From contig JARLIC010000137.1 in NCBI GenBank assembly GCA_031291905.1, forward strand, positions 51,762 to 115,761: 64,000 nt of DNA, given 5' to 3'. Shown in pieces: positions 13,166 through 55,180 of this stretch (the stretch's first letter is position 1; the number at the start of each line of letters is the position of its first letter). Below the pieces are notes generated by a model. That model was not told where the DNA came from. It ran no database searches and was given only the letters and a program-made list of their open reading frames with translations. Source of the stretch: Minisyncoccota bacterium (GTDB taxonomy: Bacteria > Patescibacteriota > Minisyncoccia > UBA6257 > 2-01-FULL-56-20). The position numbers and the translations under genes were made by a program.

Positions 13166-13912
13166 TCAGTCGGGATGGTAGTACTGAAAAGGGATGGGCA
13201 CGACGACGGGCCGGCGTGGGGGGAGGACGATGGCTCCGCTGGCGTTGACCAGGAGGTCGTCCATGAACACGCGGCTCGACGTGTTGTTCGCCTGTGCGGC
13301 GAACCCGTAGTAGCCGCCCGACGTGATGTCCGAGGCGGTGAGCGACGAGATCACGTTCACGGAAGTCGGCTGAAACGCACCGCTCGAATCCATCGTGTAG
13401 CCGTCGCTCATCCGAGTGAGAGTGACGTTGAAGATGTTCAGGCCGTACGTGACGACGCGGATCGCGTACCAACTGCCCTGGATGAGCGAACTGTCAGAGT
13501 TGGTGACGGACGCCAGGGTTGTGACCGTGCCGTTGACGATCTTGTCGAACTGGAGGTGAGCCCCCGTGAACGCGTTGTTGTACGCCAGATTCACCCAGTA
13601 GGCCGACGTGGTCGAGTTGTCCATCGTCGCGGCCGAGCACCGCATCGTCGGCCCGACCTTGTACAAGCCGACCGTCGCCGAGGAAGTGACGTAGACCATG
13701 CCCGTCAGGTCGAACGTGGCGCCGGCGCCGGGGTCGGCGATGCCGCTGGTCGCGTAATATTTGGTTCCCGCCGTGCCACTCGACAGCACCAAGCTGTTCG
13801 GCGACGAAAAGAATTGAGCGGCCGACGTGACCATCCCCGCGTCGTTGTTCCAGTTCGCCGGGATCGCGGGCGGCGTGACCGAGTCCCAATTTCCAACCAG
13901 AGAAAACGCCAT
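13166..13912 (-). CDS. Ser/Thr-rich structural protein
   Basis: 248 aa, very S/T/N-rich and beta-rich in composition. Confidence 0.5.
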   Translation of the reverse strand: MAFSLVGNWDSVTPPAIPANWNNDAGMVTSAAQFFSSPNSLVLSSGTAGTKYYATSGIADPGAGATFDLTGMVYVTSSATVGLYKVGPTMRCSAATMDNSTTSAYWVNLAYNNAFTGAHLQFDKIVNGTVTTLASVTNSDSSLIQGSWYAIRVVTYGLNIFNVTLTRMSDGYTMDSSGAFQPTSVNVISSLTASDITSGGYYGFAAQANNTSSRVFMDDLLVNASGAIVLPPRRPVVVPIPFQYYHPD

Positions 13913-19019: not shown

Positions 19020-20669
19020 ATGGCTTGGGATTCAGCGTACTATTCGTCGGTCAACGAAGATCTCTTGCGATTCATCCCGCCGGATAGTAACCGCGTGCTT
19101 GAGGTGGGATGCGGAACCGGGGCGTTGGCCTCGCGGTTCAAGCGGATCAATCCGAAGTGCGTGTACTGGGGAGTGGAGGCTGACCAAGATGCGGGCGAAG
19201 CAGCTCACAATAATCCTGATCTCGATATCATGTTTTCAGAAACAATCGAGCACTTCCTAGGTCGATATCCCACGGAGTGCGAGAATCCCGATTGCGTCGT
19301 ATTCGGCGACTGCCTCGAACACCTTGTCGATCCACACGCCGTTCTCAAGAAATGCGTTGAATGGCTTAAGCCCAACGGCTCCGTCGTCGCCTGCGTTCCC
19401 AATGTTCAGCATTGGAGCGTGATTCAAACACTGATCCAGGGCCAATGGCCTCGAATGGGATCAGGATTGTTTGATGCGACGCATCTCAGTTGGTTCACCA
19501 AGCAAAGCCTGATTGAGATGTTCGAGGCGGCGGGGCTAACTATCGCGAAGATCGTCCCTCGCAATATCGCGCCAGGCGGCGAGCGTCTCATCGACGCCGT
19601 GAAGGAGTTTGGGCTTACCGAGGACGTCGGACGGTTTAGGGAGGGATGCCAGGCGTATCAATGGCTGATCCACGCCGTCAAGGGCGACGTCCCAAGCCGT
19701 AAAGTTCTCATCCGTGGCTTCACCGCCGAAGGATGCTGCGCCCGACCGCGTCTCACGGAGCCGGGCGGAATGATCAATACGATTCCCGGCTTCCGCTACT
19801 CCGAGGTCACGACACAGGTCGAGCCGGGGGAATCCGTGGTCGTTGTACGTCAGCGATTCAACATCACCGAAGCCGCCATCCGCGAACACCTGAAGCACGG
19901 GCAGTTGATTATCGGCGAATGGGACGACGACCCGTGGTACGAAGGGTTCAACGGCAAGCTCAAGACGCCATCCGTCGAATGGGCTCTCAAGGCTTGCCAC
20001 GCGATCCAGGTCAGCACCGAAGCCATCGCCGAACTCGTGCGACCGATCAACCCGAACGTCGCAGTGTTCCCGAATCAGATCGCAGCCGTGGGACCAGAAC
20101 GAGAGTACGTCGAGTCCGACGTAATCCGGGTCTATTTGGGAGGCCAGAGGAATAAAGGCGACTGGGACAAAGTGATCCCCTTCGTCAACGGCATGTCCGC
20201 CGCGAGCCCGGATGTTTTTCACTTCGTCGTCGTGCACGATAGGGATCTCTACCAGGCCCTTGAAACGCATAGGAAGACATTTTACGCCTTCCAGCCTTAC
20301 GAAAAGTATCGGGCCATACTGAGGACGTGCGATGTGACGATTGCTTCTCTAGCCAACACGCGGTTCAATCGGTGCAAGAGCGATATAACCGTAATCGAAT
20401 GCGCGGTGGAAGGCGTGGCCGTGATTCCGTGCAATCCAGAGTCCAGCATGTACACTGAGCTAAGGTCTTGGAAATACAACAAGAAACCAAGCGAGTTCGC
20501 TGAATCCCTTCGCAGCCAGGGACGAAGAGATCGCAGTTGGTCCATCAGCAACCGCATGCTCTGCGACCACTACAAGAAGCGAGCCGCATGGTACGACGGC
20601 TTGCTCGACGACAAGGCTGAATTGGATCGCCAGTTGTTCGAGCGGCTGCCGGAACTTCGTCCTACTTGA
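19020..20669 (+). CDS. class I SAM-dependent methyltransferase fused to GT-B-like glycosyltransferase domain
   Basis: MTase motif I VLEVGCGTGALA and post-I, II and III motifs are present. The C-terminal half has an ..ECAVEGVAVI.. GT-B-like region. GC is lower than in neighbours and the strand is opposite. Confidence 0.65.
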   Translation: MAWDSAYYSSVNEDLLRFIPPDSNRVLEVGCGTGALASRFKRINPKCVYWGVEADQDAGEAAHNNPDLDIMFSETIEHFLGRYPTECENPDCVVFGDCLEHLVDPHAVLKKCVEWLKPNGSVVACVPNVQHWSVIQTLIQGQWPRMGSGLFDATHLSWFTKQSLIEMFEAAGLTIAKIVPRNIAPGGERLIDAVKEFGLTEDVGRFREGCQAYQWLIHAVKGDVPSRKVLIRGFTAEGCCARPRLTEPGGMINTIPGFRYSEVTTQVEPGESVVVVRQRFNITEAAIREHLKHGQLIIGEWDDDPWYEGFNGKLKTPSVEWALKACHAIQVSTEAIAELVRPINPNVAVFPNQIAAVGPEREYVESDVIRVYLGGQRNKGDWDKVIPFVNGMSAASPDVFHFVVVHDRDLYQALETHRKTFYAFQPYEKYRAILRTCDVTIASLANTRFNRCKSDITVIECAVEGVAVIPCNPESSMYTELRSWKYNKKPSEFAESLRSQGRRDRSWSISNRMLCDHYKKRAAWYDGLLDDKAELDRQLFERLPELRPT

Positions 20670-20955
20670 TGATCGCCAGGACGTTCTCTTCTTTCACCAG
20701 AAGCAGCTTCTTGCCGTCGACCTTGAATTCCTCGCCCGCGTACTTCGTGAACAAGACCGTGCGGCCGGGCGAGAAACCGACTTCGATCCGCTCGCCGTTC
20801 GATGCGATCCGACCCGGACCGACCGCCAAAACTGTGCCCTTGTTCGGCCTGTCCTTGGCGACGTCCGGGAGGACGATGCCGCCCTGCGAAACGTCTTCGG
20901 TCGCGTCACGTTCGATGATGCACCAGTCAAGCGTCGGAACGAGAGTCATCAACAA
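20662..20955 (-). CDS. groES: co-chaperonin GroES (Cpn10)
   Basis: GGIVLPDVAKDRPNKGTVLAVGPGR..NGERI...KYAG.E.K.DGK..L..EENVLAII aligns along the full length with the GroES pattern. Confidence 0.85.
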   Translation of the reverse strand: MLMTLVPTLDWCIIERDATEDVSQGGIVLPDVAKDRPNKGTVLAVGPGRIASNGERIEVGFSPGRTVLFTKYAGEEFKVDGKKLLLVKEENVLAIIK

Positions 20956-20965
20956 AACTCCAGGG

Positions 20966-21196
20966 GCCTATGAAATGAGCGATCAGCGATGCGGGACGTG
21001 CGAGCACTTTGGACATGAACCGCATGCCAAAGCAGAGGGATCCCCAGGATACTGCTATCGAATCCAGGAGTATTATTGCCCAGGCCCAGAATTCAAAGAC
21101 CTGGCGTGCGTGTCGGCCGACGTCGGCGGCATCTTTTATTGCCGCCCCGAATTCGGCTGCATTCTCTGGGAAAAGAAGGAGAAGAATGATGAGTGA
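20966..21196 (+). CDS. small Cys-rich protein, paralog A (MSDQRCGTCEH...FGCILWEKK)
   Basis: ATG at 20966. Shares conserved N- and C-termini with two downstream paralogs. Confidence 0.55.
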   Translation, partial: AYEMSDQRCGTCEHFGHEPHAKAEGSPGYCYRIQEYYCPGPEFKDLACVSADVGGIFYCRPEFGCILWEKKEKNDE

Positions 21197-21410
21197 CCAG
21201 CGATGCGGGACGTGTGAGCACTATTGTAGAAGTGATCTACAGGCTGAAGAGAACACGTACGGCACGTGTGATCGAATAGGAACAGAAGGTGGCCCTTGGC
21301 CAAGCGAAGACAATCTGGCGTGCGCTGTCGACAGGCAGGACGGGGCGGATCTTCGCTGCATGCCAACCTTCGGCTGCGTACTCTGGGAATCAAAGGAGTC
21401 AGCGAAATGA
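21186..21410 (+). CDS. small Cys-rich protein, paralog B
   Basis: Start ATGATGAGTGA overlaps paralog A's stop. Sequence MMSDQRCGTCEHY...FGCVLWESK. Confidence 0.55.
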   Translation: MMSDQRCGTCEHYCRSDLQAEENTYGTCDRIGTEGGPWPSEDNLACAVDRQDGADLRCMPTFGCVLWESKESAK

Positions 21411-21691
21411 GTGACCAGCGATGCGGGGCGTGCAATCGATTCGGCGGTCTTCTCAGAAAGGATTACATGAGAGAAGACTATCCAGAGCCTTCTGAGAGAT
21501 TCAGCTTTGGGTACTGCCGAGCGATCAAACTCAATCGAATTCCCAATAGCAATGAACCCAGCGGCGAGCCGGATTGCCTCGCGTTCACAACCGACGTAGA
21601 AGACTATTCAGCAGCATTGATGGTTCGCCCCAATTTCGGCTGCGTCCTCTGGGAGCCTAAACGAACACCGGATCTTCCGGCTGCGGATTGA
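21407..21691 (+). CDS. small Cys-rich protein, paralog C
   Basis: ATGA overlap with paralog B. Sequence MSDQRCGACNRF...FGCVLWEPK. Confidence 0.55.
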   Translation: MSDQRCGACNRFGGLLRKDYMREDYPEPSERFSFGYCRAIKLNRIPNSNEPSGEPDCLAFTTDVEDYSAALMVRPNFGCVLWEPKRTPDLPAAD

Positions 21692-22622
21692 GTTGGCGGC
21701 GTAAATCGTCGTACAAAACCTCTTCCCGCATACTCCGCGTCAGCACGTCCTTCACCGCGTGAACGTATCGCGAGTCCATGCCGTCGAGCCCGGCGGCGTG
21801 GCCGCGAAGGTGGGCGTTGGGCATGATCTCCGCCCATAAGCCGAATTGATCGGCCCAGTTCGGCAGATCGTCCATCATGCCGTCGAGCCACTTCAGGAAC
21901 GACTTCTGCTGCTCGGGCTTCTCGACGAGGTTCTGGCGGTAGGATTCGTTCTTGCCGTGGTGTCGCCAGTAACCGATGCGGACGGGGTCGCAGACGACCT
22001 TGCCCTTGCGGCCCATCGCGGCGAGGATCGTTCGTTCGGTGAACAGGTCGCAGTGCTCGGGCACTTCCGCCATCGCGTCGCGGAAGTCCTGGCCGCACCG
22101 GAAGGCGACGGCGGGCGACAACGCCCAGCTTGTGACGTACGCGAACGGCGTCAGCATGTCGCCGTCGATGACCATCGGCCTGTTCCTGAGAAGGTTCATC
22201 GGCACCAGAGGGCCGACACCGGTGAACCACATCGCAAGGTCTTCGTCTTCGGAGATAGCGAGGATCGCGGTCCACGTCTGTGCATCCGCGAACGTGTCGA
22301 AAGCGATGGTGATCCGCTCGCTGTACCGCTCATGGACGATGTCGTCGTCCTGGCACCACGCGAAGTATTCGGCCCCGTCGTCCATCGCCATCTCGGCGGC
22401 TTCACGCCAGTTCTCCCAGAGGCACGTCGCGTCGGTGCGTCGATGGGAGACGAGCGGGTTGTCTTTGTATTGGTGCATCAACTCGGCGGTCGCGTCCGTC
22501 ATGCCCTGATCGGCGACGAGTATCCGGCATGGCGAGATCTGCCCCAAGAGGCATTCGATCGTCTTGCCGAGGAATTCCGTGCGATCCAGGTGCGGGACGC
22601 CGACCGTGAGCTTGGGATGCAT
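21657..22622 (-). CDS. family-2 (GT-A) glycosyltransferase
   Basis: N-terminus LTVGVPHLDRTEFLGKTIECLLGQ...ILVADQG fits the GT2 start pattern. A DxD-like WCQDDD follows. Confidence 0.6.
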   Translation of the reverse strand: MHPKLTVGVPHLDRTEFLGKTIECLLGQISPCRILVADQGMTDATAELMHQYKDNPLVSHRRTDATCLWENWREAAEMAMDDGAEYFAWCQDDDIVHERYSERITIAFDTFADAQTWTAILAISEDEDLAMWFTGVGPLVPMNLLRNRPMVIDGDMLTPFAYVTSWALSPAVAFRCGQDFRDAMAEVPEHCDLFTERTILAAMGRKGKVVCDPVRIGYWRHHGKNESYRQNLVEKPEQQKSFLKWLDGMMDDLPNWADQFGLWAEIMPNAHLRGHAAGLDGMDSRYVHAVKDVLTRSMREEVLYDDLRRQLNPQPEDPVFV

Positions 22623-22709: not shown

Positions 22710-23168
22710 TCAAAAGAACGTGTTTTCAAGCTGCACATACGCGGCCGTGTCGTTGTACGACGCGGGGGCGTAGTGCTCGACGAAGCCGTTGGCGTGAACG
22801 CCCGCGACTACCGACGCACCGGACACCGACAGGACCGGGAAAAGCCAAGGTCCCGTGCTCTGGTTGCCGAGGAACTCGCCCCGGATCTCCGCGACGAGGG
22901 TTCCGCCCGACGCCGAGGTGGCGGAGGCGAACAACAGGCCCGTGGATGCGACCAGGGTCGACCCAGTGCCGGTCGAAGCCGACGCGGCGTAGAACAGCAT
23001 CCTGGCCGAAGCCGCTCCACCCGAACCGGCGTCCAGGTGGAAAACCATCTTGTTGCGGCCGGTCATGGTCAACGCCGAGCCGATGGACGAGCCGGCGGCG
23101 TAGACGGCGGGGGGCAGTCCGGCGTTCAGCTCGCTGAACACGTCCCGGAACTTGCGACTTGCAAACAT
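22710..23168 (-). CDS. Ala/Ser/Gly-rich structural protein (decoration candidate)
   Basis: 152-aa ORF directly downstream of the capsid genes. Confidence 0.45.
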   Translation of the reverse strand: MFASRKFRDVFSELNAGLPPAVYAAGSSIGSALTMTGRNKMVFHLDAGSGGAASARMLFYAASASTGTGSTLVASTGLLFASATSASGGTLVAEIRGEFLGNQSTGPWLFPVLSVSGASVVAGVHANGFVEHYAPASYNDTAAYVQLENTFF

Positions 23169-23190: not shown

Positions 23191-24690
23191 TTAGGAGCCG
23201 AGCGAAAGCTGGACGAAGGGGGACGTCTTGTAGATCACGCCCGAGGGGGACGTCGACTGACGCGGCCCCATCCACAAGGACTTGCCGTCGTGGCGCTGCT
23301 TCCAGCGATACGCGATCTGGTCGGTGTCGAAGAGGAACTGTTCGCTGATCGCGACTTCGATGCCCGAGCGGTTCGCCACGCCGTACTGCGTGGGGTCGAT
23401 GAGCATGATGTCGCCGGTGCCCGAGACCTCAAGCTTTTCGGTCGTGAAGCGGATCGGCAGGCCGAGCAGGGTGCCCGCAGCCTGATACCGCATGCCGGCC
23501 GACTTGGTCCCGGCGATACTGGAAAGCATCGCGGCCTGGGTGATCTGTGAGTTGGGCTGGAACGCAAGGGTGGTGCCGTCGCGGACGTTAAGAAGTTGAC
23601 TGTAGGTCGCCTGGTGGGCGATGAACATCGCGTTCTTAAGACATGACATATCGAACAAGGCCAACATCGCCTGGAGGTCGGCGAGCTGGATCTTGTTCTG
23701 CAACAGGCGGGTCGCCGTGAGCAACGCCGGGCTCTGGCGGATTCCGGTCGGCTTGCCGGCTCCGTCGCCGTTCAGGAACACGAAGTCCGTCTTGTACGCC
23801 ATCGCCTTCAAAAAGAGGCTCTGAAGGACGGTGGCAGCCGAGATGTAGTTGTCGGCGACGAGGTCGCGGGAGATCTGCGTGTAAGCAGTCTGGTCGACGA
23901 TTTTGTACGTGATCTCGCGAAGCTTCGCGTCGGAAGCCTGGCGTTGGGTCGACTCGCCCTTGTAGAAGACCTGGATGCCGGCGGTCGCCGACGTCTGGCC
24001 GATGCCGGGGGCGAAGTACTGGTCCAGGGCGGGCCAGTGGACTTCGTTGGTCGCCCCGACCGGGATGTTGAAGGCGTACGGCTCGATCAGCGACTCTTCC
24101 ATCGCGATCTCGTTGTAGCCTCCGAGAATCTCCGGCTTCACGAAGTAGCCATAGGCGGAGCCGCCGGAAAGCGATTCACTGCCGGCGCGAGCGACGGCGG
24201 GCGACGCGGTCGACATGGAGCCGTCCCATGTCCGCTCCAGCTTGAAGTGCTCGACGAGCCGCTGGTCGGCGTGGTCGCGTTCGCCCTGAGACGCCGACGG
24301 GCGGGTTCGATAGAGCAGCCCGAGGATTTCGCCAAGGCCGCGACCGATCGCCTTGCCGTCCACGCCGCGATCGGCGGGGGATTCGGTGTGCTCGATCGTC
24401 CCGTTGAACGGAACGCCGTCGTCATCGAACTCCATGCCCTTGGACGGAGGGCCTTTACTGGGCTTATTGCCGCCGCTCTGGAGCGAACGCTTGAGGTCTT
24501 CAAGCTCCTTCGTGATCCCGGCGGTGGCGTCACTGAGTTGGCTGCGGACCATCGCGCTGACGTGGGCCTGAGCGTCGGATTCCTCGGCGAATCCGTACTC
24601 GATGTACCCTCGTGCGACCTTCTCGTCCGCGATATCGATCACATCGCCGGCCTTGTGCTCGTCGATGTTCTTCTTGAGCTTCACAAACAT
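23191..24690 (-). CDS. HK97-fold capsid protein paralog with N-terminal coiled-coil (delta-like) segment
   Basis: DLVADNYISAATVLQSLFLKAMAYKTDFVFLNGDGAGKPTGI matches the HK97 major-capsid signature. Start MFVKLKK at 24690. Confidence 0.7.
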   Translation of the reverse strand: MFVKLKKNIDEHKAGDVIDIADEKVARGYIEYGFAEESDAQAHVSAMVRSQLSDATAGITKELEDLKRSLQSGGNKPSKGPPSKGMEFDDDGVPFNGTIEHTESPADRGVDGKAIGRGLGEILGLLYRTRPSASQGERDHADQRLVEHFKLERTWDGSMSTASPAVARAGSESLSGGSAYGYFVKPEILGGYNEIAMEESLIEPYAFNIPVGATNEVHWPALDQYFAPGIGQTSATAGIQVFYKGESTQRQASDAKLREITYKIVDQTAYTQISRDLVADNYISAATVLQSLFLKAMAYKTDFVFLNGDGAGKPTGIRQSPALLTATRLLQNKIQLADLQAMLALFDMSCLKNAMFIAHQATYSQLLNVRDGTTLAFQPNSQITQAAMLSSIAGTKSAGMRYQAAGTLLGLPIRFTTEKLEVSGTGDIMLIDPTQYGVANRSGIEVAISEQFLFDTDQIAYRWKQRHDGKSLWMGPRQSTSPSGVIYKTSPFVQLSLGS

Positions 24691-24843
24691 GGGGTTCTCC
24701 CGATGTTGTCGTGGGTGTTGACAACGCTCGGCGCGGCGAATCTCCAGTCCGCCGGGGAGTCCGCCGCATCTCGAAGACGGGTCGGGCCGGGAACCTGATT
24801 GCTCGTGCGCTGACACGAAACAAAAACGTGTATTAAGATGTCG

Positions 24844-25884
24844 TTACTTGAGAACGACGAAGGGGCCGGCGGTCTGCGAGCCGTCGGCGATCGTGACGGG
24901 CTGCCTCCAGAGCGGCGAGCCGTCGACCCGGAACTTGAACCGAAAGACCGTACTGTCGGTGTCGAACATGAACTCGTCGGCCGACCGCGTCTCGACGAAC
25001 TCGCCGAGTGACCCACAGGTCACGCTCATGTCGGGGTCGCCGTTATTGTCCACGGTGCGGGCCACGAGGGCGTACTGGCTCCAGTCGCCGACGATCAAAT
25101 CGCCTTGCGTCCCGAGTGCGGGGCACTGTTCGACGGGCAGGAGCGGGCGGCCCTTGAGCAACGGGTACGGGTTGCCGTACATCCCCATCGGCATGTACAG
25201 ATTCGCGGGCCAGCCGGTCGTCGTGGCCACGGCGTCGAGCTTCAGCAGCGTGTCGTCGTTGCACATCCACGCCGCGTTGCGACGGCAGTACGGCCAGAGC
25301 CGGCTCCACATCGTGTCGACGTCGGCCTGTGCGATGTTGTTGGAGCCGTTCCGCGTGACCTGGATGCTGGAGTTGGCCGCGATCACGCCGAGCGGGTGAG
25401 TGATCCCCTTGCCGTTGATCATCGACTCGACGACGGCGTACTGGATTTCCTGGCTTGCGGCGTAGTCCAACATTCGTTCGACGAGCGGGGCGTCGGCGAG
25501 CAGGTCGTTGCTGAACGGCGTGGAAAAGACCATGGCTCGCTTGGGGACGAACTTGATCATCGCCGCCGCCGGCTGGCTGGCGTCCGGCGTGGCCGACTTG
25601 TCGTCGGTCGTTCCCTGCCATCGAACCTTGATGCCGCCGAAGCGAGAACCGGCGACGCGGCTGGTTTCGTCCAGTGCGGGCCACTCGGCTTCGTGCTTGT
25701 TGGTCGTCAGGAAGAGGCATCGCGCCAATGGGCCGTCGATCGCACGAGCCTTGTCCCACACCGACTGGAACAGCTCGGTGTCGAGCAGGAAGCCGCCGTT
25801 GGCCCCGCCGCCGTACGTATTCAGTGCGCGGGTGACGTCCGCAAAGTAACGGACGATCGGATTTCCGCTCTGTGCGGTCGTCAT
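24844..25884 (-). CDS. HK97-fold capsid protein paralog (no delta domain)
   Basis: NDLLADAPLVERMLDYAASQEIQYAVVESMINGKGITHPLGVI carries the same HK97 signature in a second, different sequence. Confidence 0.7.
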   Translation of the reverse strand: MTTAQSGNPIVRYFADVTRALNTYGGGANGGFLLDTELFQSVWDKARAIDGPLARCLFLTTNKHEAEWPALDETSRVAGSRFGGIKVRWQGTTDDKSATPDASQPAAAMIKFVPKRAMVFSTPFSNDLLADAPLVERMLDYAASQEIQYAVVESMINGKGITHPLGVIAANSSIQVTRNGSNNIAQADVDTMWSRLWPYCRRNAAWMCNDDTLLKLDAVATTTGWPANLYMPMGMYGNPYPLLKGRPLLPVEQCPALGTQGDLIVGDWSQYALVARTVDNNGDPDMSVTCGSLGEFVETRSADEFMFDTDSTVFRFKFRVDGSPLWRQPVTIADGSQTAGPFVVLK

Positions 25885-32886: not shown

Positions 32887-33318
32887 TTAGGCGCCGACTT
32901 CGGTCCAGCGTTCGTCGTCCCAATCGCTCGTCATCGCCTCGTAGGTTCCGTCGTGCTGGGCCGGCGGCGGCGGCTGGATATTGTGCTTGGCCCCGTAGAT
33001 CGCCATCGCACGAACGACGAGCGGCGGCGGATTGCCGGTGGTCGCGGTCAGCGTGTCCCACCACTGGTGCGGGCCGTCTCCCTCGATCGCGACCTGGCGG
33101 CAGAAGTCGCACCGGAGGGCGGCCAGATCGTAGCGTCGCAGGAGTCGGGTTGATCGCTGTGTCGACCGGGTGCAGCGAGGGCAGGGGGGGCCGTCGTGCT
33201 TGATCACGACCTGGACTTCATCGTCCGGCACGTCGGCTTCGACGGCTTCAATAATGGCGTCTTCGGCATCGCGGGGCTTCGGGGGACGGCCGCGACGTTT
33301 GGTCTCGATCGTGCTCAT
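32887..33318 (-). CDS. basic zinc-ribbon protein (KRRGRPPKP; CPRC...CDFC)
   Basis: Overlaps the TerL stop by 4 nt. Confidence 0.45.
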   Translation of the reverse strand: MSTIETKRRGRPPKPRDAEDAIIEAVEADVPDDEVQVVIKHDGPPCPRCTRSTQRSTRLLRRYDLAALRCDFCRQVAIEGDGPHQWWDTLTATTGNPPPLVVRAMAIYGAKHNIQPPPPAQHDGTYEAMTSDWDDERWTEVGA

Positions 33319-35864
33319 GCTACCTCTATGTCCGTGTCATGCCACGAGTCGGGCCACCAGCGGGGGTCTTGCCAATCTTGCTGGGCGGCTCGATCTTTTT
33401 CGATCTTCTCCAGCCACGCCCGCTCCAGCCGTTCGCGTTCCATGCGTTCGCGTTCTTCGGGGGGGATGGCGGCTGGGCCACGCTTCTGGACTTCAAGAGA
33501 GGCGTAGGCGAGCACGTCGACTGTGTCGTCGTGGGCACCGTTAGGAAAGGTCATCAACTCGGTTTCGAGGTTGTCGAGTTCCGGGTGATGCTTGGGAAAC
33601 CAAATCTGACCGGCTTCCATGCGTATCTGGGCGTCTACGCTTCGGGCTATTTTATCGACGTTCCCGGTCTTGAGCGACTGGATCGTCAAGCCTTGCTTTC
33701 GAGCCGCTTTAATGACTAGGTTTTGCGCTGCAACATCTTCGATTCCACAATACGACGCCTTGTGCTTGTCCATCATCGCACGAATAGACGGGACGAGCTT
33801 ATCGCCGGTCATCTGTTCGCGATGCATGTCAAGAAGAATCAGGTCGCTGTCCGGCGTCACAGCCCACGCGCCGATGCATGTGTAGTCCGCACTGGTTCTT
33901 GTAGAAAATGCGAGGTCTACCGCCAGGAAAATTCGGCAGTGATCGAGGCTGAATGATCGTGTTTCAAGCCTGATGTAGTTTTCGTGCCGATCATAGTATT
34001 TGAAATCTGATCGCCGAAATAATCCACCACCCTCGGGGGAGGGGCGTTGCTGATACACAGAATTAAAAAGATGTTTTTGGGTTGCTTTGACACGAAGCAG
34101 GTATTCTTCGTTGAAGTGCTCGGGCCAGAGGGCTTCGCCTCGCTTGCGTCCCATCGGATCGTTATCTTCGGCCAAAGCCGGAAGATTATAGACGACCCAT
34201 TCCTCGCCCGTCTCTTTCGCTCGATCCAGGATCTTGCCGACCATGTCGGCTTCATGCCACCTCTGCATGACGACGACGATCGACCCACCGGGCTCAAGCC
34301 GCGTGTACGCGGTTCCGACGTACCAGTTCCAAGCCTTCTCGCGAAGCGTCTCGCTGAACGCATCCTCTTGCTTCTGGACGTCGTCAAGCACAAGTAGGTG
34401 CGCTCCCTTCCCGAGCAACGCGCCCCCCATGCCGACGGTCTGCATTCCGCCGCTGTGGCCCTTGAGCATCCAGCGATCGGCGGCCTTGCTATCCTGGCGG
34501 ATCTTGACTCCGAAGTATTTCTCGCCGTCCTCTTCGATCAGGTCGCGTACCTTGCGTCCCCACTCGGAAGCGAACTCAGCCTCATACGACGCCAGGATCA
34601 CTTTCTTGTCCGGGTTCCTCCCCAGATACCACGCCGGGAAGTACATCGACGTCATTGTGCTATTGCACGTCGGAATCATCGAGCGGCCACACAAAAACAT
34701 GTGGCTCGGTGAGTCGACTTCGATGCAAACAGTGTCGCCGGTTCCGACGTACGTGGCGCCGATGTATCGGTTCGGCTGCTTAACGCCGTCGCGACATCGC
34801 GGCGACTTCCGAGGCGACTTGCAGGCCCCTGCTTTATAGAACATGACGCGGAATTTGGGTCCGCAATCTTTTCCATAAAGCGTAGCTCTTCCAAGTATCA
34901 GGCTCGCCTTGGTTCCGAGTGAACGAACGAGTTCAAGGCAGCCTTCAGCCAATGCTAGGTCTGTCGAGCAAAACTCGACCTGGCCATCCGGAGCGACATG
35001 GCCATCCGTGTCGCAAAGCCCACGAAGCAACTCAAACCTTTGGCTCTCGCTCGCTCGCAGGTATTGGTTCGGGACATGCTTGTTCTTCAGCAGGCCGAGT
35101 TCGCGAAGCTTTCCGCCAAGGCCCATGACCCCAAATACGTTTTCGACCGACCGATCTCTCGTCTCGTAGCCGAGCCGCGAAAGTTCTTCCTTGAACCACT
35201 CAGTATCCAGGCCGTTGCACGTGATGCCGCAGTTCTCGGAGCAGCCGTTTCCAAGCCAAACACCGAGGACGTACGGGTCGATCGGCAAGTCGGCATCGGG
35301 AAGCTGAAGTGCCCCCTGCTTGCGGACCATAAGCCTCTTGTTTCGAGGCTTCGAGAGATAGGCGGTGTCTTTGACGTGGAATATATCGCGAGTCTTCGCC
35401 TTGCTGACGACCCACTCGTGATTTTGGTCGGCGAAGATTTCATCGCCGTCGTCGGTTGTTACTCGGTAGATCGGGCGGTTCTTCCAGACGGGAGACTTTG
35501 CCACAACGTTACAGGGCTGACCGTCTTCATTAAAGACCTGATCGCCCGGCTTCAGTTCCCCTATCGTCGTCCAGCCGGAAGGCGTCGGGATCGGGGTGCT
35601 CAGGGCTAAGGCTTTCCCGTGCCTCGGTGGCACCGTCACAATTAATCGTTTGATCCGGCCCTCCGCCACATCCATCATCTTCTGCGTCAAGAAGAGAAGA
35701 TGTTTCGCCGGCTTCCACTGAAATTCGCTCGAAAGATGTGCATAGTGCGCGGGGCTCAGGTTCGCTATATGCTTCTCTAGGCTGAATCGCTCCTGCGAGT
35801 TGAGTGAGGCCGCCAAGGAGCGTAAGGACTCGATCTGTTGCGGCGTCTCCATTGAGGTGATCAA
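33315..35864 (-). CDS. terminase large subunit interrupted by an intein
   Basis: N-terminal ATPase region runs through the Walker A up to VTVPPRHGK. It resumes as STMTSMYFPAWYLG.. after ~317 inserted residues. C-terminal RNase-H-like nuclease (FLAVDLAFS...DSDLILLD). Confidence 0.85.
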   Translation of the reverse strand: MITSMETPQQIESLRSLAASLNSQERFSLEKHIANLSPAHYAHLSSEFQWKPAKHLLFLTQKMMDVAEGRIKRLIVTVPPRHGKALALSTPIPTPSGWTTIGELKPGDQVFNEDGQPCNVVAKSPVWKNRPIYRVTTDDGDEIFADQNHEWVVSKAKTRDIFHVKDTAYLSKPRNKRLMVRKQGALQLPDADLPIDPYVLGVWLGNGCSENCGITCNGLDTEWFKEELSRLGYETRDRSVENVFGVMGLGGKLRELGLLKNKHVPNQYLRASESQRFELLRGLCDTDGHVAPDGQVEFCSTDLALAEGCLELVRSLGTKASLILGRATLYGKDCGPKFRVMFYKAGACKSPRKSPRCRDGVKQPNRYIGATYVGTGDTVCIEVDSPSHMFLCGRSMIPTCNSTMTSMYFPAWYLGRNPDKKVILASYEAEFASEWGRKVRDLIEEDGEKYFGVKIRQDSKAADRWMLKGHSGGMQTVGMGGALLGKGAHLLVLDDVQKQEDAFSETLREKAWNWYVGTAYTRLEPGGSIVVVMQRWHEADMVGKILDRAKETGEEWVVYNLPALAEDNDPMGRKRGEALWPEHFNEEYLLRVKATQKHLFNSVYQQRPSPEGGGLFRRSDFKYYDRHENYIRLETRSFSLDHCRIFLAVDLAFSTRTSADYTCIGAWAVTPDSDLILLDMHREQMTGDKLVPSIRAMMDKHKASYCGIEDVAAQNLVIKAARKQGLTIQSLKTGNVDKIARSVDAQIRMEAGQIWFPKHHPELDNLETELMTFPNGAHDDTVDVLAYASLEVQKRGPAAIPPEERERMERERLERAWLEKIEKDRAAQQDWQDPRWWPDSWHDTDIEVA
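34662..35612 (-). mobile_element. intein with LAGLIDADG homing endonuclease inserted in the terminase P-loop
   Basis: Hint N-blocks ALALSTPIPTPSGWTTIGELKPGDQVFNEDG and ..IFADQNHEWVV. Two LAGLIDADG motifs: YVLGVWLGNGCS and LLRGLCDTDGHV. C-terminal block ..VCIEVDSPSHMFLCGRSMIPTCN followed by S. Confidence 0.7.
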
Positions 35865-46217: not shown

Positions 46218-47329
46218 TTACTTATTGATCGGCATAACAACATACGTATAATTTTCGCCCGACCTGAACACCACCGCGTTCTTCGGGTCCAGCAAATCCA
46301 CCGTCAGGACCGTATCCATCTCCAGTGACCGCAACGCTTCGACGACGTACTGCGGGTCCATCGTCAGCGACATTCCATCCCCATCGAAGCCGCCCAGCAA
46401 AGGCAACTCGATGCACGATTGGCCGACGTCTGAGGCGTTGCTGGTCAACTCCACGCCATCGGACGAGAACTTGAACGTGACGCCCCGGCTTTCCTCGCTG
46501 GTCACGATCGAAGCCTGTTGCGTGGCCGACAAGAACGACGCCACGTCCAGCGGGATCGTGTACGTCGAGCTTTTGGGAAACACATCCTGATATCGCGGGA
46601 ACCGGCCTTCCACCAGCCGACTGTAGATCACGCTGTTCGACGACCGAACCACGACCGCAACGCCCTTAAGGAAGGCGACGTGAATCTGATCGCCGTCGCC
46701 GGACAGAGCCTTGTCGATCAGCTTCAGAGCTTTGACCGGAAGAACGCATTGCGAATCGTCCACGTCGCCGACCCGCTCAGCAGGAACCGTGGCTCGTGCC
46801 AGACGGCGGCCGTCGGTTCCGACGAACGAGACGCTGTCGTCCGCCCGTTCGACCAGGACGCCGCCGAGAGCGTATCGAGCCGAGTTCAGGTCGGTCGCAA
46901 AAGCCGTCCTCTTGATCAGCTTCTTCAAGTCCGAGTCGATCAGGACCATGTACGATTCGCTGTCAAACCCGGCTGGCTCGGGGAACAAACTTGGTTCTTC
47001 GTTCGGCAGGTTGAACCGTGACCGCTTGCCCCGGATCAGCAACTTGTCATCATCGGCTTCGATGCTGATCTCGTCGTCGATCGACGTCCGCAGGATTTGA
47101 CTGACGCGGTCGGTCGGCAGGATAACATGGCCGTCTCGATCGAACTTCACGCCAAGCAGCGTCCGCCGCACCCCGACTTCCAGATCCGTCGCGATCAATG
47201 TGCATTCGTCGTTGTCGATGACAAGTTTCACGTTTTGCAGGATCGGCTTGGGTGATCGAGCCGGCACGACGCTGGCGACCGTTGTAAACGCTTCGAGCAA
47301 GGCTTTTCGGTTGAACGTCGCTTTCAAGG
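46218..47329 (-). CDS. dnaN: DNA polymerase III beta subunit (sliding clamp)
   Basis: N-terminus KATFNRKALLEAFTTVASVVPARSPKPILQNVKL....LIATDLEV and C-terminal YTYVVMPINK are present. Likely TTG start at 47329 with GAGGTGG upstream. Confidence 0.8.
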
Positions 47330-47815
47330 TTCCACCTCGTGTGTCGGGCCATCTGATAGAAAGGTAGCCATCTGGTAATAGAACTTCTCTCGCCCCTCGA
47401 AGTCGTCTTCGACGGCGCATGCTTCGACCTTGCCGGCGTCCAAAAACATCGCCGCCGCACAGCCAGCCTGATCGATTTCGAGGTATACAGTGCGGTACTT
47501 ATGGGATTCGGTGTGTTTGAACATCATGCCGATTCCACCCTGGACGCAAGGTGACAGCCGCGTCAGGAATTGCATTCCTGGGTATTCAGCGAACAAGAAG
47601 TACTGAGCGACATCCAAAGCTTCCAGCGTCGGCGTCGGTGCGTCATATCCGTCCCACCCTGGCTTGAGCATCGTCAGCTTCACGAGCTTGGATTTCCAGT
47701 CGATCACGCTTCCCCTGACTCCCTCTGATCTCGATCCGCAAAAAACGTCTCGTAATCTGCTTTCGTCAACGACAGCAACTCGTCGTCCGGCATGCTGGCG
47801 AGGTAGGTGTTCCAC
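47324..47815 (-). CDS. hypothetical protein
   Basis: ORF. Confidence 0.35.
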   Translation of the reverse strand: MEHLPRQHAGRRVAVVDESRLRDVFCGSRSEGVRGSVIDWKSKLVKLTMLKPGWDGYDAPTPTLEALDVAQYFLFAEYPGMQFLTRLSPCVQGGIGMMFKHTESHKYRTVYLEIDQAGCAAAMFLDAGKVEACAVEDDFEGREKFYYQMATFLSDGPTHEVEP

Positions 47816-49304: not shown

Positions 49305-49574
49305 CACGTCTCCCCTTAGAATTTGCATTCAGGTAAGAAGATTAGATATGGCTAAACCAAATACTAAAACCTAATCCTTCGGAGTCAAAAAGACAATACT
49401 TCGCACGGCCAGCGTGCCCGAACCTTCTTTATATAGGGAATCCATCAAAGATCGTGAATGCAAGCGGCCGATTGTCTTGCTTTGCTAAAAATCTTGCAAT
49501 CTGTCTTGACGTTCGGAATAAACGGCGGTAGGATCTGGCTCGGGCGACAAGAACGTTGGAATGGCAAGGAGAAC

Positions 49575-50741
49575 ATGCGAATGAGTGAGCTGATCGTGGA
49601 GGTGTGCGAAGTACTGGAAGTCCTGCCGCATGGGAATGCGGATCGGCTTGAGATCGTCACGGTGAAAAATTGGCCCGTGGTTGTCCAGAAGGGCCTTCTC
49701 AAGCAAGGCGATCCCGTCGTTTTCTTTCCGCCGGACAGCGTCTTGACCGAAGAACTGGCCGATCGGCTCGGCATCCGGAAGTACCTCGCCCCGGTCAAGA
49801 CCGGCGAATCCGTCACCGGCTATCGGGTCCGGGCCACTCGGCTTCGCGGTGTCGCCAGTTTCGGGACGATCGACCATGAGATCCCGGAAGGCTTCGCGGT
49901 CGGGGCCGACGTGGCGGAGCACTACGGCGTAACGAAGTGGGAGCCGCCGGCACGGGGTGGCGACAATTGGGCTGGCGGAGGGCTCAAGGGCAGCCAGTAT
50001 CGCGTCACCAATGCGGCGTTCCACCGATACAAGAGCATCAGCAATATTCGGCACAATCGCAATGCGTTCAAGGACGGCGAGATGGTCGTCCTCACGGAGA
50101 AGGTCCACGGCTCCAATATGAGGTCCGGCCTCATCAAGACGCCGTACGACCCCGGAACCGGCTTTATTGGTTTCTTGCGGCGGATTTACTGCCGGGTGTT
50201 CGGTTCGCCGGAGCCGACCTACGAGTTGATGGCCGGGAGCCACAACCTTCCTCGCGACGTCTATAGCGAAGACGGCAGCCTCACAGAGTACGCCCTCCCG
50301 ATCGGCGAACCGAACGTCGTCGGCCTGCTCAAGTACCTGAGCAACGGCGAGCACGACGTCATCCTGTTCAGCGAACTGTTCGGCAGCGGCGTCCAAGATA
50401 TGACGTATGGCCACAAGGACGGCAGTCGTGGCTTCCTGGCCTTCGACATCACGATCGACGGACGATATCTGGACGCGGTTGAGAAGTACGACCTGCTGTC
50501 CCGCTATCAGGTACCGACCGTCCCCGTGCTTTACACGGGACCCTTCTCATGGGATGTCGTCGAAGCCTATACCGATGGCCCGACCACGATCTGTGATCCC
50601 AAGGATGCCGGCCCGTTCAAGGGTCGCGAGGGCGTCGTCGTGACGTGCTTGACGGAGCCTCGGGACTATCCAGGCCGGAAGATTTACAAGTCGATTTCGG
50701 CGGATTATTTGGCCCGGAAGAATGCCACGGATTCCCACTGA
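49575..50741 (+). CDS. ATP-dependent RNA ligase (Rnl family) with N-terminal tRNA-binding-like OB domain
   Basis: N-terminus EVLEVLPHGNADRLEIV...GDPVVFFPPDSVL resembles the HPNADkL tRNA-binding domain. Ligase motif I LTEKVHGSN matches Rnl EKIHGTN. Later EGVVV and KIYK fit motifs IV and V. AAGGAGAAC upstream of the ATG. Confidence 0.65.
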   Translation: MRMSELIVEVCEVLEVLPHGNADRLEIVTVKNWPVVVQKGLLKQGDPVVFFPPDSVLTEELADRLGIRKYLAPVKTGESVTGYRVRATRLRGVASFGTIDHEIPEGFAVGADVAEHYGVTKWEPPARGGDNWAGGGLKGSQYRVTNAAFHRYKSISNIRHNRNAFKDGEMVVLTEKVHGSNMRSGLIKTPYDPGTGFIGFLRRIYCRVFGSPEPTYELMAGSHNLPRDVYSEDGSLTEYALPIGEPNVVGLLKYLSNGEHDVILFSELFGSGVQDMTYGHKDGSRGFLAFDITIDGRYLDAVEKYDLLSRYQVPTVPVLYTGPFSWDVVEAYTDGPTTICDPKDAGPFKGREGVVVTCLTEPRDYPGRKIYKSISADYLARKNATDSH

Positions 50742-53595: not shown

Positions 53596-54225
53596 ATGAG
53601 TGGGCGGCCTTTTATCAGGAGTGCCATATTGAGGTATGTGAGCATCGATATCGAGACGACGGGATTGAATCCGGAGACGGATCAGATCCTTGAGTTCGGA
53701 GCCGTGATCGACGACACGCTGAGGCCAGATGTTCCGGTTGAGGAACTGCCGACGTTCCGCAAGGTAATCCGGAGCGACCGGCTATCCGGGACGCCAATGG
53801 CAATCGCCATCAACGCGAGCCTGATCAACTTCATTGCTTCCGTGGAAAAGCCGGAAGAGAACGAATTGTTCTGCCTTCCTAAAGATCTTGGCTTCGAGTT
53901 CTTCGTTTGGCTTCGAGGTCATGGATTCAAGATCAAGAACAACTCGAATGCGGCCTTTGTGCCAGCAGGAAAGAACTACGCCGGATTCGATTCCAGGTTC
54001 CTAAATAAGATCCCCCACTGGAATACGTATCTGACTCCATGCCATCGCACGCTCGACCCCGCCATCCTCTACTTCGATCCCCTGAAGGACGAGAAGCCGC
54101 CGAGCCTTTACGAATGCCTGGAGCGGGCTGGGTTCGACGCTACGGTGAAGCACACGGCCGTCGACGACGCACGTGATGTGGTGCGACTTCTTAGGCATAA
54201 GTTTGCGGAGGTGTCTGGTGGCTGA
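53596..54225 (+). CDS. DEDD-family 3'-5' exonuclease
   Basis: Exo I motif YVSIDIETTGL and Exo III motif HTAVDDARDVVRLL. Confidence 0.7.
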   Translation: MSGRPFIRSAILRYVSIDIETTGLNPETDQILEFGAVIDDTLRPDVPVEELPTFRKVIRSDRLSGTPMAIAINASLINFIASVEKPEENELFCLPKDLGFEFFVWLRGHGFKIKNNSNAAFVPAGKNYAGFDSRFLNKIPHWNTYLTPCHRTLDPAILYFDPLKDEKPPSLYECLERAGFDATVKHTAVDDARDVVRLLRHKFAEVSGG

Positions 54226-55180
54226 GAACACGAAGATTCAGTGGGCCACGCACACCTGGAGCCCACATCGTGGATGTGCGAAAATCAGCCCTGGGTGTGC
54301 TAATTGCTACGCGGAACGCGGCAGTCATCGCAACCCAGGACTATTCGGCGTATGGGGAGTGAACGGCAACCGAGTCATCAACGCTGACTGGGACAAGCCG
54401 CTGGCGTGGGACCGCAAGGCCGCCAAGCTCGGCGAACGGCACCGCGTGTTCCCGTCGCTGTGCGACCCGTTCGAGGATCGCGAGGATCTGGACGGGTCGC
54501 GGTCGCGGCTTCTGGAGTTGATCAGCAAAACGCCGAACCTCGATTGGCTGCTACTGACGAAACGTCCCGAGAACTGGCGTCCGCTGATGCAAAGATTGGC
54601 GAACGCCGGAGTCAGCGACGGCGACTGCTTGGCGGGCGACTGGCTCGCCGGAAATCCGCCCGCCAACGTCTGGCTCGGCGTGTCGGTCGAGAATCAGGAA
54701 TACGCGGACAAGCGTCTGCCTATCTTGCTTCAGATCCCAGCCGCGATCCGCTGGGTGAGCTATGAACCCGCGTTGGGGCTAGTCGATTTTAAACCTCATA
54801 TCTGGGACATCGACTGGATCGTATGCGGTGGCGAGAGCGGGCCAAGGGCCAGGCCCTTCGACCTTCGCTGGGCCGAAGCCGCACGCGATCAATGCAAGGA
54901 AACCGACGTGTTGTTCTTCATGAAGCAGGCCGGTTCTCGGCCGATCATGAGCAGCGACGAGGCCAATCCCATCAAGCGGGCCGTCTGCGAGAAATACAAC
55001 GCCGGCTGGATCGAGCGGCACATCACCGATCCCAAAGGCGGTGCGATCGAGGAATGGCCAGAGGATCTGAGGGTCCGCGAGATCCCAGTTGTCGGAGCGA
55101 CGCCAGCCGAGATCAAGAAGGCCGAGGCGAAGGGGATGCCGCTGTTTGATTCTACAGAGAAGGAGACTGGCCTTGAGTGA
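54218..55180 (+). CDS. phage Gp37/Gp68-family protein
   Basis: TKIQWATHTWSPHRGCAKISPGCANCYAERG fits the N-terminal hallmark of this family. Probable GTG start at 54218 after GGAG. Confidence 0.6.
   Translation: MAENTKIQWATHTWSPHRGCAKISPGCANCYAERGSHRNPGLFGVWGVNGNRVINADWDKPLAWDRKAAKLGERHRVFPSLCDPFEDREDLDGSRSRLLELISKTPNLDWLLLTKRPENWRPLMQRLANAGVSDGDCLAGDWLAGNPPANVWLGVSVENQEYADKRLPILLQIPAAIRWVSYEPALGLVDFKPHIWDIDWIVCGGESGPRARPFDLRWAEAARDQCKETDVLFFMKQAGSRPIMSSDEANPIKRAVCEKYNAGWIERHITDPKGGAIEEWPEDLRVREIPVVGATPAEIKKAEAKGMPLFDSTEKETGLE

Follow-up and report, generated by a model that had tools for sequence, protein, structure and literature searches.

The 64,000-nucleotide (nt) stretch of contig JARLIC010000137.1 analysed here (the window, at its full length) is part of an uncultured tailed phage and carries three consecutive open reading frames (ORFs A, B and C) for small cysteine-rich proteins, located between a gene for a fused S-adenosylmethionine (SAM) methyltransferase and glycosyltransferase (MT-GT) and a convergent gene for a family-2 glycosyltransferase (GT2). 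Comparative analysis shows that ORFs A, B and C are genuine genes, translatable and paralogous to one another, which belong to a large family without a name, and that the 94-amino-acid (aa) type represented by ORF C is a conserved core gene accompanied by additional copies that vary from phage to phage. The proteins form a previously unnamed class of small Cys4 phage proteins that is absent from family libraries. As to what they do, we favour with moderate confidence a reading in which they would be metal-stapled, acidic binding proteins of small size, whose genes would have been multiplied by unequal recombination between conserved ends.

Three tandem genes of a large four-cysteine family

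The products of ORFs A, B and C all begin with MSDQRCG(T/A)C and end with P.FGC(I/V)LWE.K (Table 1). BLASTP between them was significant for every pair (A/B, E=1e-19 with 46% identity; A/C, 1e-12; B/C, 4e-13), which bears out the tandem triplication of a small Cys-rich gene described in the initial annotation. That annotation also counted four conserved Cys per protein in a CxxC...C...C pattern, and the pattern is indeed invariant: the family-conserved residues are C6, C9, C27 and C62 in ORF A numbering, corresponding to C6, C9, C37 and C79 in ORF C. It is to be noted that a further residue, Cys45 in the 'LAC' segment of ORFs A and B, is not among them, its place being taken by F, I or Y in ORF C and most relatives. 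Every residue that is invariant in the family is present in all three proteins, which are acidic, with isoelectric points (pI) of 5.1, 4.4 and 4.9 for ORFs A, B and C, respectively. Only 4-6 residues precede the first Cys, and the proteins carry neither an N-terminal extension nor a signal peptide.

Table 1. The small-gene array of the window, its putative ribosome-binding sites and the adjoining genes.
Feature	Position	Strand	Remarks
SAM methyltransferase + glycosyltransferase fusion (MT-GT)	19020-20669	+	549 aa; syntenic in all six related lineages; N-terminal Pfam Methyltransf_23 (E=1.2e-21, aa 14-176), C-terminal PHROG 7162 glycosyltransferase (E=4.5e-20, aa 260-543)
GroES/Cpn10	20662-20955	-	Pfam Cpn10, E=8.7e-26; between MT-GT gene and array
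AGGGG, Shine-Dalgarno-like	20962-20966	+	8 nt before ORF A ATG; read from sequence
ORF A	20975-21196	+	73 aa; four-Cys family, copy 1 of the array; MSDQRCGTCEHF...FGCILWEKKEKNDE
AAGGAG, Shine-Dalgarno for ORF B	21176-21181	+	made by Lys-Glu codons ending ORF A
ORF B	21189-21410	+	73 aa; second copy; alternative ATG at 21186
AAGGAG, Shine-Dalgarno for ORF C	21393-21398	+	made by Lys-Glu codons ending ORF B
ORF C	21407-21691	+	94 aa; third copy, conserved core type; identical to P0001
Convergent family-2 glycosyltransferase (GT2)	21657-22622	-	321 aa; Pfam Glycos_transf_2, E=4.3e-8; right boundary of array
152-aa ORF	22710-23168	-	
Capsid-family gene 1	23191-24816	-	541 aa; HK97-type Phage_capsid match
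Capsid-family gene 2	24844-25884	-	346 aa; HK97-type Phage_capsid match

The initial annotation, which recognised no named family, implied that these genes are rare. This did not hold: an exhaustive profile search of 1.84 billion representatives (50% identity clusters, metagenomes), using a profile built from the window ORFs and 12 relatives, retrieved 3,304 clusters at E<=1e-3 and 219 at E<=1e-10, so that the family comprises at least 3,304 clusters at 50% identity; a word-indexed search had returned 13 relatives only. The family consensus reads M..CGTCKHW...G.C.RI...A..(E)DGS.Y.A.L....DFGCVLWE.K, the lengths are mostly 70-100 aa and the motif domain spans the whole protein. Among 149 aligned members (ORF C numbering), C6, C9, C37, A59, F77 and C79 are invariant, the Cys being found in 149/149, and D63, G78 and E83 are nearly so. 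The signature further includes the CxxC at residues ~4-9, the third Cys in the context G-x-C-x-(R/K)-I and an L-(W/H/F)-E element near the C-terminus. Exactly four Cys are present in 77/149 members. Across the family the proteins start with M-x(1-4)-C and have no signal peptide; their median pI is 4.9, with 88% of members under pI 6.

No curated family in Pfam, PHROGs or NCBIfam scored above threshold with the three ORFs and 72-149 relatives, and a PDB sequence search with two profiles and ORF B gave nothing relevant. Likewise, tblastn of ORF C and two canonical family members against 50,697 deposited phage genomes gave no match; in the same genomes the capsid protein had distant tblastn matches only, and blastn of the region detected no nucleotide match. 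Two motif matches were found among 185,579 bacterial species genomes, both on contigs of metagenome-assembled genomes (Dormiibacterota and Planctomycetota). The source names of ten family clusters were either 'hypothetical protein' or missing, ten longer members contained no informative extra domain, and a search of the literature on the motif, on phage HiPIP-like proteins and on four-Cys counter-defence proteins yielded nothing relevant.

The surroundings of the family were surveyed by ORF clustering in 55 non-redundant locus groups from viral and metagenome contigs. The recurrent neighbours were MT-GT (6 groups) and GT2 (5 groups), both in the window's clade only, and no conserved partner gene was detected outside this clade. 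Tandem copies are equally restricted to the clade; the other 49 locus groups are single-copy, and there the gene typically lies in a series of small genes of the early or replication region.

Orthologs in related phages, designated here by their locus numbers, allowed us to measure the selection acting on these genes. ORF A and its L017 counterpart are 81% identical with a ratio of nonsynonymous to synonymous substitution rates (dN/dS) of 0.16, and ORF C is 64-72% identical to its orthologs in L017, L007, L001 and L010 with dN/dS of 0.25-0.47; the whole-gene ortholog range of 0.16-0.47 indicates purifying selection over the full length. The divergence of the ORF C type between phages resembles that of MT-GT (64-69%) and GT2 (63-76%). 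Outside the same phage (L022-24), ORF B comes closest to the one copy that L002 has, with 52% identity. The copies that are not of the C type are 30-45% identical to one another and to C, and the sole recognisable ortholog pair among them is ORF A/L017_1. The initial annotation described strongly diverged middle portions, which is correct between paralogs (30-45% identity) but not between orthologs, the middle of ORF A being nearly unchanged in L017. Its suggestion of diversifying selection is supported neither by the ortholog dN/dS values nor by the 94-aa copy, which diverges at the rate of the flanking enzymes. Synonymous sites are saturated between paralogs (dS above 1.8 or not computable) with the protein invariants kept, so that the dN/dS values speak for the orthologs and not for positive selection after duplication. 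The pattern of copies fits old duplications or cassette turnover and gives no sign of a given gene diversifying rapidly.

We also considered that the ORFs might be untranslated and their similarity that of a DNA-level repeat. ORF B was skipped by the gene caller in three contigs of the same phage, the ends of the genes are conserved at the nucleotide level, and the GC content at third codon positions (GC3) of the three ORFs, 0.55-0.63, is well under that of the structural genes (0.82-0.85). However, the dN/dS values given above, the thousands of protein-level relatives that share the same invariant residues with different codons, the correct spacing of the Shine-Dalgarno motifs and the conservation of the paralogous proteins despite synonymous saturation make an artefact exceedingly improbable. 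The MT-GT gene upstream has a GC3 of 0.69, and the lower values suggest that the + strand block has a history different from that of the structural module. In the public contig L022 (9288-9499), which belongs to the same phage as the window, ORFs A and C were called and ORF B was left uncalled; database counts of the four-Cys family are therefore probably underestimates.

Copy number, gene junctions and conserved ends in related phages

The order MT-GT, small genes, convergent GT2 recurs in six lineages of related phages, with one copy of the small gene in L002, two in L001 and in L017, and three in L007, in L010 and in the window (= L022-24). Of the six lineages, five have the 94-aa C type. 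As a rule, the first copy overlaps the MT-GT stop codon, often by ATGA. In the window, the antisense Cpn10 gene is interposed, with an 8-bp overlap with the 3' end of MT-GT and a start 19 bp from the ORF A ATG, so that any + strand transcript entering the array from the MT-GT side would run antisense to Cpn10. Cpn10 occupies the array site in the window and in L007 and is absent there in L001, L002, L010 and L017; a 133-aa ORF in L001 and a 66-aa ORF in L007 are further unrelated genes at this position, so that the site acts as a hot spot for accessory genes. The initial annotation had proposed to look for the array beside glycosyltransferases or GroES in other phages: it does adjoin glycosyltransferases in the relatives, and GroES in two of the six lineages.

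The overlapping start and stop codons exist as previously described. The A/B junction is ATGATGAGTGA, with an overlap of 8 nt, or of 11 nt if translation starts at the ATG at 21186, and the B/C junction is ATGA, with a 4-nt overlap. Overlaps of 8 nt (ATGAGTGA in the window) were found at all eight junctions examined in the relatives. All three Shine-Dalgarno-like motifs of the window lie 7-8 nt from their own ATG, and those of ORFs B and C are embedded in the preceding gene. The underlying arrangement, W-E-x-K-E = TGGGAAnnnAAGGAG, is shared by the array junctions of L017, L007 and L001; AAGGAG is present at the junctions of these three lineages and not at the two L010 junctions. We could not detect a conserved stable hairpin, such as might gate coupling, at the gene junctions, which are no more structured than shuffled sequence (z -1.2 to +1.6). 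With recurrent stop/start overlaps and a ribosome-binding site inside each upstream gene of the array, translational coupling, as put forward in the initial annotation, is plausible.

Conservation at the ends of these genes extends to silent positions. The CxxC knuckle is encoded by TGC-GGG-ACG-TG(C/T) in 13/14 distinct paralog genes of the clade, the remaining one being ORF C with TGC-GGG-GCG-TGC (GCG encoding Ala). The knuckle Gly codon is GGG in 14/14 genes, compared to 19% of Gly codons in eight large genes of the window, and the knuckle Thr codon is ACG in 13/13 genes with Thr. Third-position identity at identical residues reaches 0.84-0.87 at the 5' end and 0.71-0.76 at the 3' motif over a background of 0.64-0.65, taken from the middle part of the C orthologs and from the MT-GT gene. 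Other lineages of the family use other knuckle codons. Changes in copy number by unequal recombination at the conserved ends, or gene conversion, would explain both the conservation of the ends and the variable number of copies.

At the other border of the array, ORF C shares its final 35 nt with the 3' end of the convergent gene for GT2. This tail-to-tail overlap of the last small gene with GT2 is conserved across lineages and amounts to 35 bp, or 47 bp in L010 (window, 21657-21691; L001, 10248-10282; L002, 4204-4238; L007, 5225-5259; L010, 6453-6499). A Pro/Asp-rich tail (PK.P.D.PA.D) goes with the last copy of the array and not with the paralog type: it is present in L002_1 and L010_3, and the mid-array C-type copy of L010 is without it. 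Since the tail tracks the last position, its sequence is probably limited by the GT2 C-terminus encoded in the same DNA.

Predicted structure, putative metal site and possible functions

A first AlphaFold2 model based on 15 sequences was too poor for use (predicted local distance difference test, pLDDT, of 54), and a model of ORF C built with 72 sequences reached a pLDDT of 76. The latter shows a small beta-sheet, with short strands at residues 12-15, 35-37 and 41-44 and a hairpin at 59-73, together with one short helix; the Cys are located in turns or at strand ends. Its only structural neighbour was A0A6J5ND48, an 81-aa protein of an uncultured Caudovirales phage in BFVD (Foldseek probability 0.98, 24% identity over 86 columns), evidently a member of the same family and without annotation. 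The Cys pattern consists of one CxxC, a lone Cys ~17-30 residues further on and another ~35-45 residues beyond, the distance between the third and the fourth Cys (C3-C4) being 42 in ORF C. From this pattern and the lack of a signal peptide we infer that the four invariant Cys bind a single metal centre in cytoplasmic proteins. A structural Zn(Cys)4 site would be the simplest, and an iron or iron-sulfur centre is the alternative.

The zinc ribbon of the initial annotation does not match this architecture, since the proteins have a single CxxC knuckle and two isolated Cys instead of two knuckles and no zinc-ribbon model scored above threshold. A classic zinc ribbon needs two CxxC/CxxH knuckles, each on a beta-hairpin, and a rubredoxin needs two CxxC pairs; the family has one in either case. 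The best-scoring zinc-ribbon models were Zn_ribbon_LapB (E=0.0037) and Zn_Ribbon_YjdM (14.6 bits compared to a cut-off of 30.8).

According to the reading that we favour, the two termini of the chain would be fastened to each other by the metal site around the small beta-sheet, while the middle loops could vary. Each protein would act alone by binding a host or phage macromolecule, in host takeover or counter-defence, and extra paralogs would widen the range of targets. The array would be carried on one message with the upstream MT-GT gene and translated by coupling; the core copy would be kept, and extra copies would be gained and lost by recombination at the conserved ends. Acidity, the lack of a conserved partner gene and the early or accessory location in other phages together suggest stand-alone macromolecule binding. 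Several observations weigh against this reading, which we regard as about equally likely to be right or wrong. The synonymous conservation of the gene ends could instead reflect a constraint on translation initiation. The model of ORF C is of medium confidence only, and the convergence of the four Cys is an expectation; metal binding, expression and the binding partner, hence all claims about function, are inferred. Within the clade, moreover, the genes belong to a glycosylation island inside the structural module, on the MT-GT strand, which would fit a glycosylation or virion role equally well. A more ambitious version, in which a new class of metal-stapled mini-proteins of environmental phages, with a previously unseen fold, would direct variable loops at different host targets (in defence or takeover, for instance) and a cassette-like array would be enlarged and reshuffled in this clade by recombination at deliberately conserved gene ends, so that every phage has a set of its own, seems to us rather unlikely. 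Points worth following are the lack of a match for the predicted fold, the failure to find the family among the cultured phages searched and the conserved silent sites at the gene ends.

The same four Cys could instead ligate a [4Fe-4S] cluster in the manner of high-potential iron-sulfur proteins (HiPIPs), the small proteins then being redox or cluster-carrying modules brought into the cell; in a still bolder form of the ambitious version above, such a cluster would make them the first phage-borne proteins of that type. Weak Pfam matches pointed in this direction (HIPIP in 6/149 members, best E 0.0074; HPIP_like in 6/149, best 0.016; BssC_TutF in 1/149), and the proteins are acidic and rich in aromatic residues around the Cys, like small electron carriers. 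We compared the family by hhalign with a single HiPIP and with a 22-sequence HiPIP alignment, and by means of a purpose-built hidden Markov model (HMM). In hhalign and with the HMM, the first three Cys (C1, C2 and C3) were aligned to HiPIP Cys43, Cys46 and Cys63, the spacing being similar in short-loop members, and the local motifs look alike, with an aromatic residue 2-3 positions past C2 and, at the last Cys, F-G-C-x-x-W where HiPIPs have G-aromatic-C-x-x-W. However, hhalign probabilities were 1-4%, the purpose-built HMM gave <=8.8 bits, and the best Pfam score shown was 15 bits (P0044, E 0.03) compared to a cut-off of 22, over profile positions 27-52 of 66. HiPIPs have the Cys spacing C-x2-C-x(about 16)-C-x(about 13)-C and are exported by a Tat (twin-arginine translocation) signal. 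Here the fourth Cys never aligns, C3-C4 being ~35-45 residues instead of 13, a Tat signal peptide is lacking, and the neighbours scanned include no redox partner. Zinc-finger models matched equally weakly (Zn_ribbon_LapB in 5/149 members, Znf_XAF1_N in 5/149), the signal coming mostly from the CxxC knuckle. We therefore consider a HiPIP-like cluster unlikely and would treat the resemblance as a lead, not a classification.

A different role is suggested by the flanking enzymes, of which the small proteins could be substrates, carriers or specificity adaptors, either as ribosomally made, glycosylated peptides (loosely comparable to the Cys-rich S-glycosylated bacteriocins made with GT2-type enzymes) or as capsid-glycosylation factors. 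The array lies between MT-GT and GT2 in all six lineages, often ATGA-joined to the former and tail-to-tail on the latter; tandem paralogs with conserved ends and variable middles resemble a precursor-peptide array, and amplification is seen only where both enzymes are present. Nevertheless, 49/55 locus groups are without an adjacent glycosyltransferase or methyltransferase, which argues that the basic function is independent of these enzymes, and the use of the site as a hot spot by unrelated genes (Cpn10, the 133-aa and 66-aa ORFs) means that adjacency may be positional only. Furthermore, leader/core organisation is lacking, with conservation at both ends and a fold predicted for the entire chain, the orthologs are under purifying selection over their full length, and neither an exporter nor a protease occurs among the neighbours scanned. 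A direct link to glycosylation is thus quite unlikely in our view.

Phage context and comparison with known systems

The phage genes identified in the window encode a portal protein, the large terminase, the two capsid-family proteins, tail proteins, a DNA polymerase III beta clamp and an RNA ligase; no tRNA gene or Rfam match was found in it. The fused MT-GT protein, together with the GT2 gene beside the capsid genes, suggests a module for virion or other glycan modification. The larger capsid-family protein has an N-terminal region of ~220 aa outside its domain match, and the pair of capsid-family genes is also present in L001 and L002. The large-terminase ORF (33315-35864, - strand) encodes 849 aa, with terminase domains from ~residue 400 and a LAGLIDADG domain at 275-322 that could be an intein or a fused homing endonuclease. 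The clamp gene is located at 46218-47420 on the - strand. In the unrelated lineage L003-L006 (L003, 4406-5754), a lone member of the four-Cys family directly follows and overlaps a clamp gene. On the right side of the window, a + strand block encodes an RNA ligase with an OB-fold domain and a DUF5131 (phage Gp37/Gp68-like) protein (49458-50741 and 54173-55180). In L002, a gene adjoining the portal gene (13337-13654) has an Acb2/Tad1-hairpin Pfam match; we take this hairpin to be a known kind of counter-defence sponge, and its occurrence therefore points to counter-defence cargo in this phage group.

Small phage proteins of unknown function have been the source of many host-takeover and counter-defence factors. 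The four-Cys family is large (at least 3,300 clusters), yet absent from curated libraries, solved structures and, as far as three queries show, cultured phages. The window offers a natural experiment, with one conserved and two diverged copies on what would be a single message and clear invariant residues. Should the proteins serve as modules for target binding, the arrays peculiar to each lineage would illustrate how such tools are diversified by phages; should they hold an iron-sulfur cluster, they would be a new kind of phage-encoded cofactor protein; and if neither is true, they constitute a further domain of unknown function that can now be defined.

Among known systems, the glycocin-like precursor class needs a leader and core, obligatory co-occurrence with the modifying glycosyltransferase and an exporter or protease; these genes have no leader and core, 49/55 locus groups have no glycosyltransferase beside them, and no exporter or protease was seen among the neighbours scanned. 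The proteins resemble zinc ribbons (Zn_ribbon_LapB, PF18073) and rubredoxin-type knuckles in their N-terminal CxxC followed by an aromatic residue, their four Cys and their small size; the PF18073 match, at E 0.0037, covers the knuckle only and is below the cut-off. With the HiPIP family (PF01355, together with PF18524, HPIP_like, and PF08201, BssC_TutF, which we take to describe HiPIP-like small subunits of benzylsuccinate synthase) they have in common a small and acidic chain, a CxxC and two lone Cys, aromatic residues by the ligands and C-x-x-W at the last Cys. They differ from it in their sub-threshold scores, a C3-C4 distance about three times longer and the lack of an N-terminal helical region, a Tat signal and a nearby redox partner; structure comparison gave no match to its fold. 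Finally, Com of phage Mu is a basic, RNA-binding protein with two CxxC pairs that is encoded upstream of its target gene, whereas the window proteins are acidic, have one CxxC and are encoded downstream of the enzyme gene. No sequence relationship between the two was detected by any search; what they share is that both are small four-Cys phage proteins whose genes overlap that of a modification enzyme.

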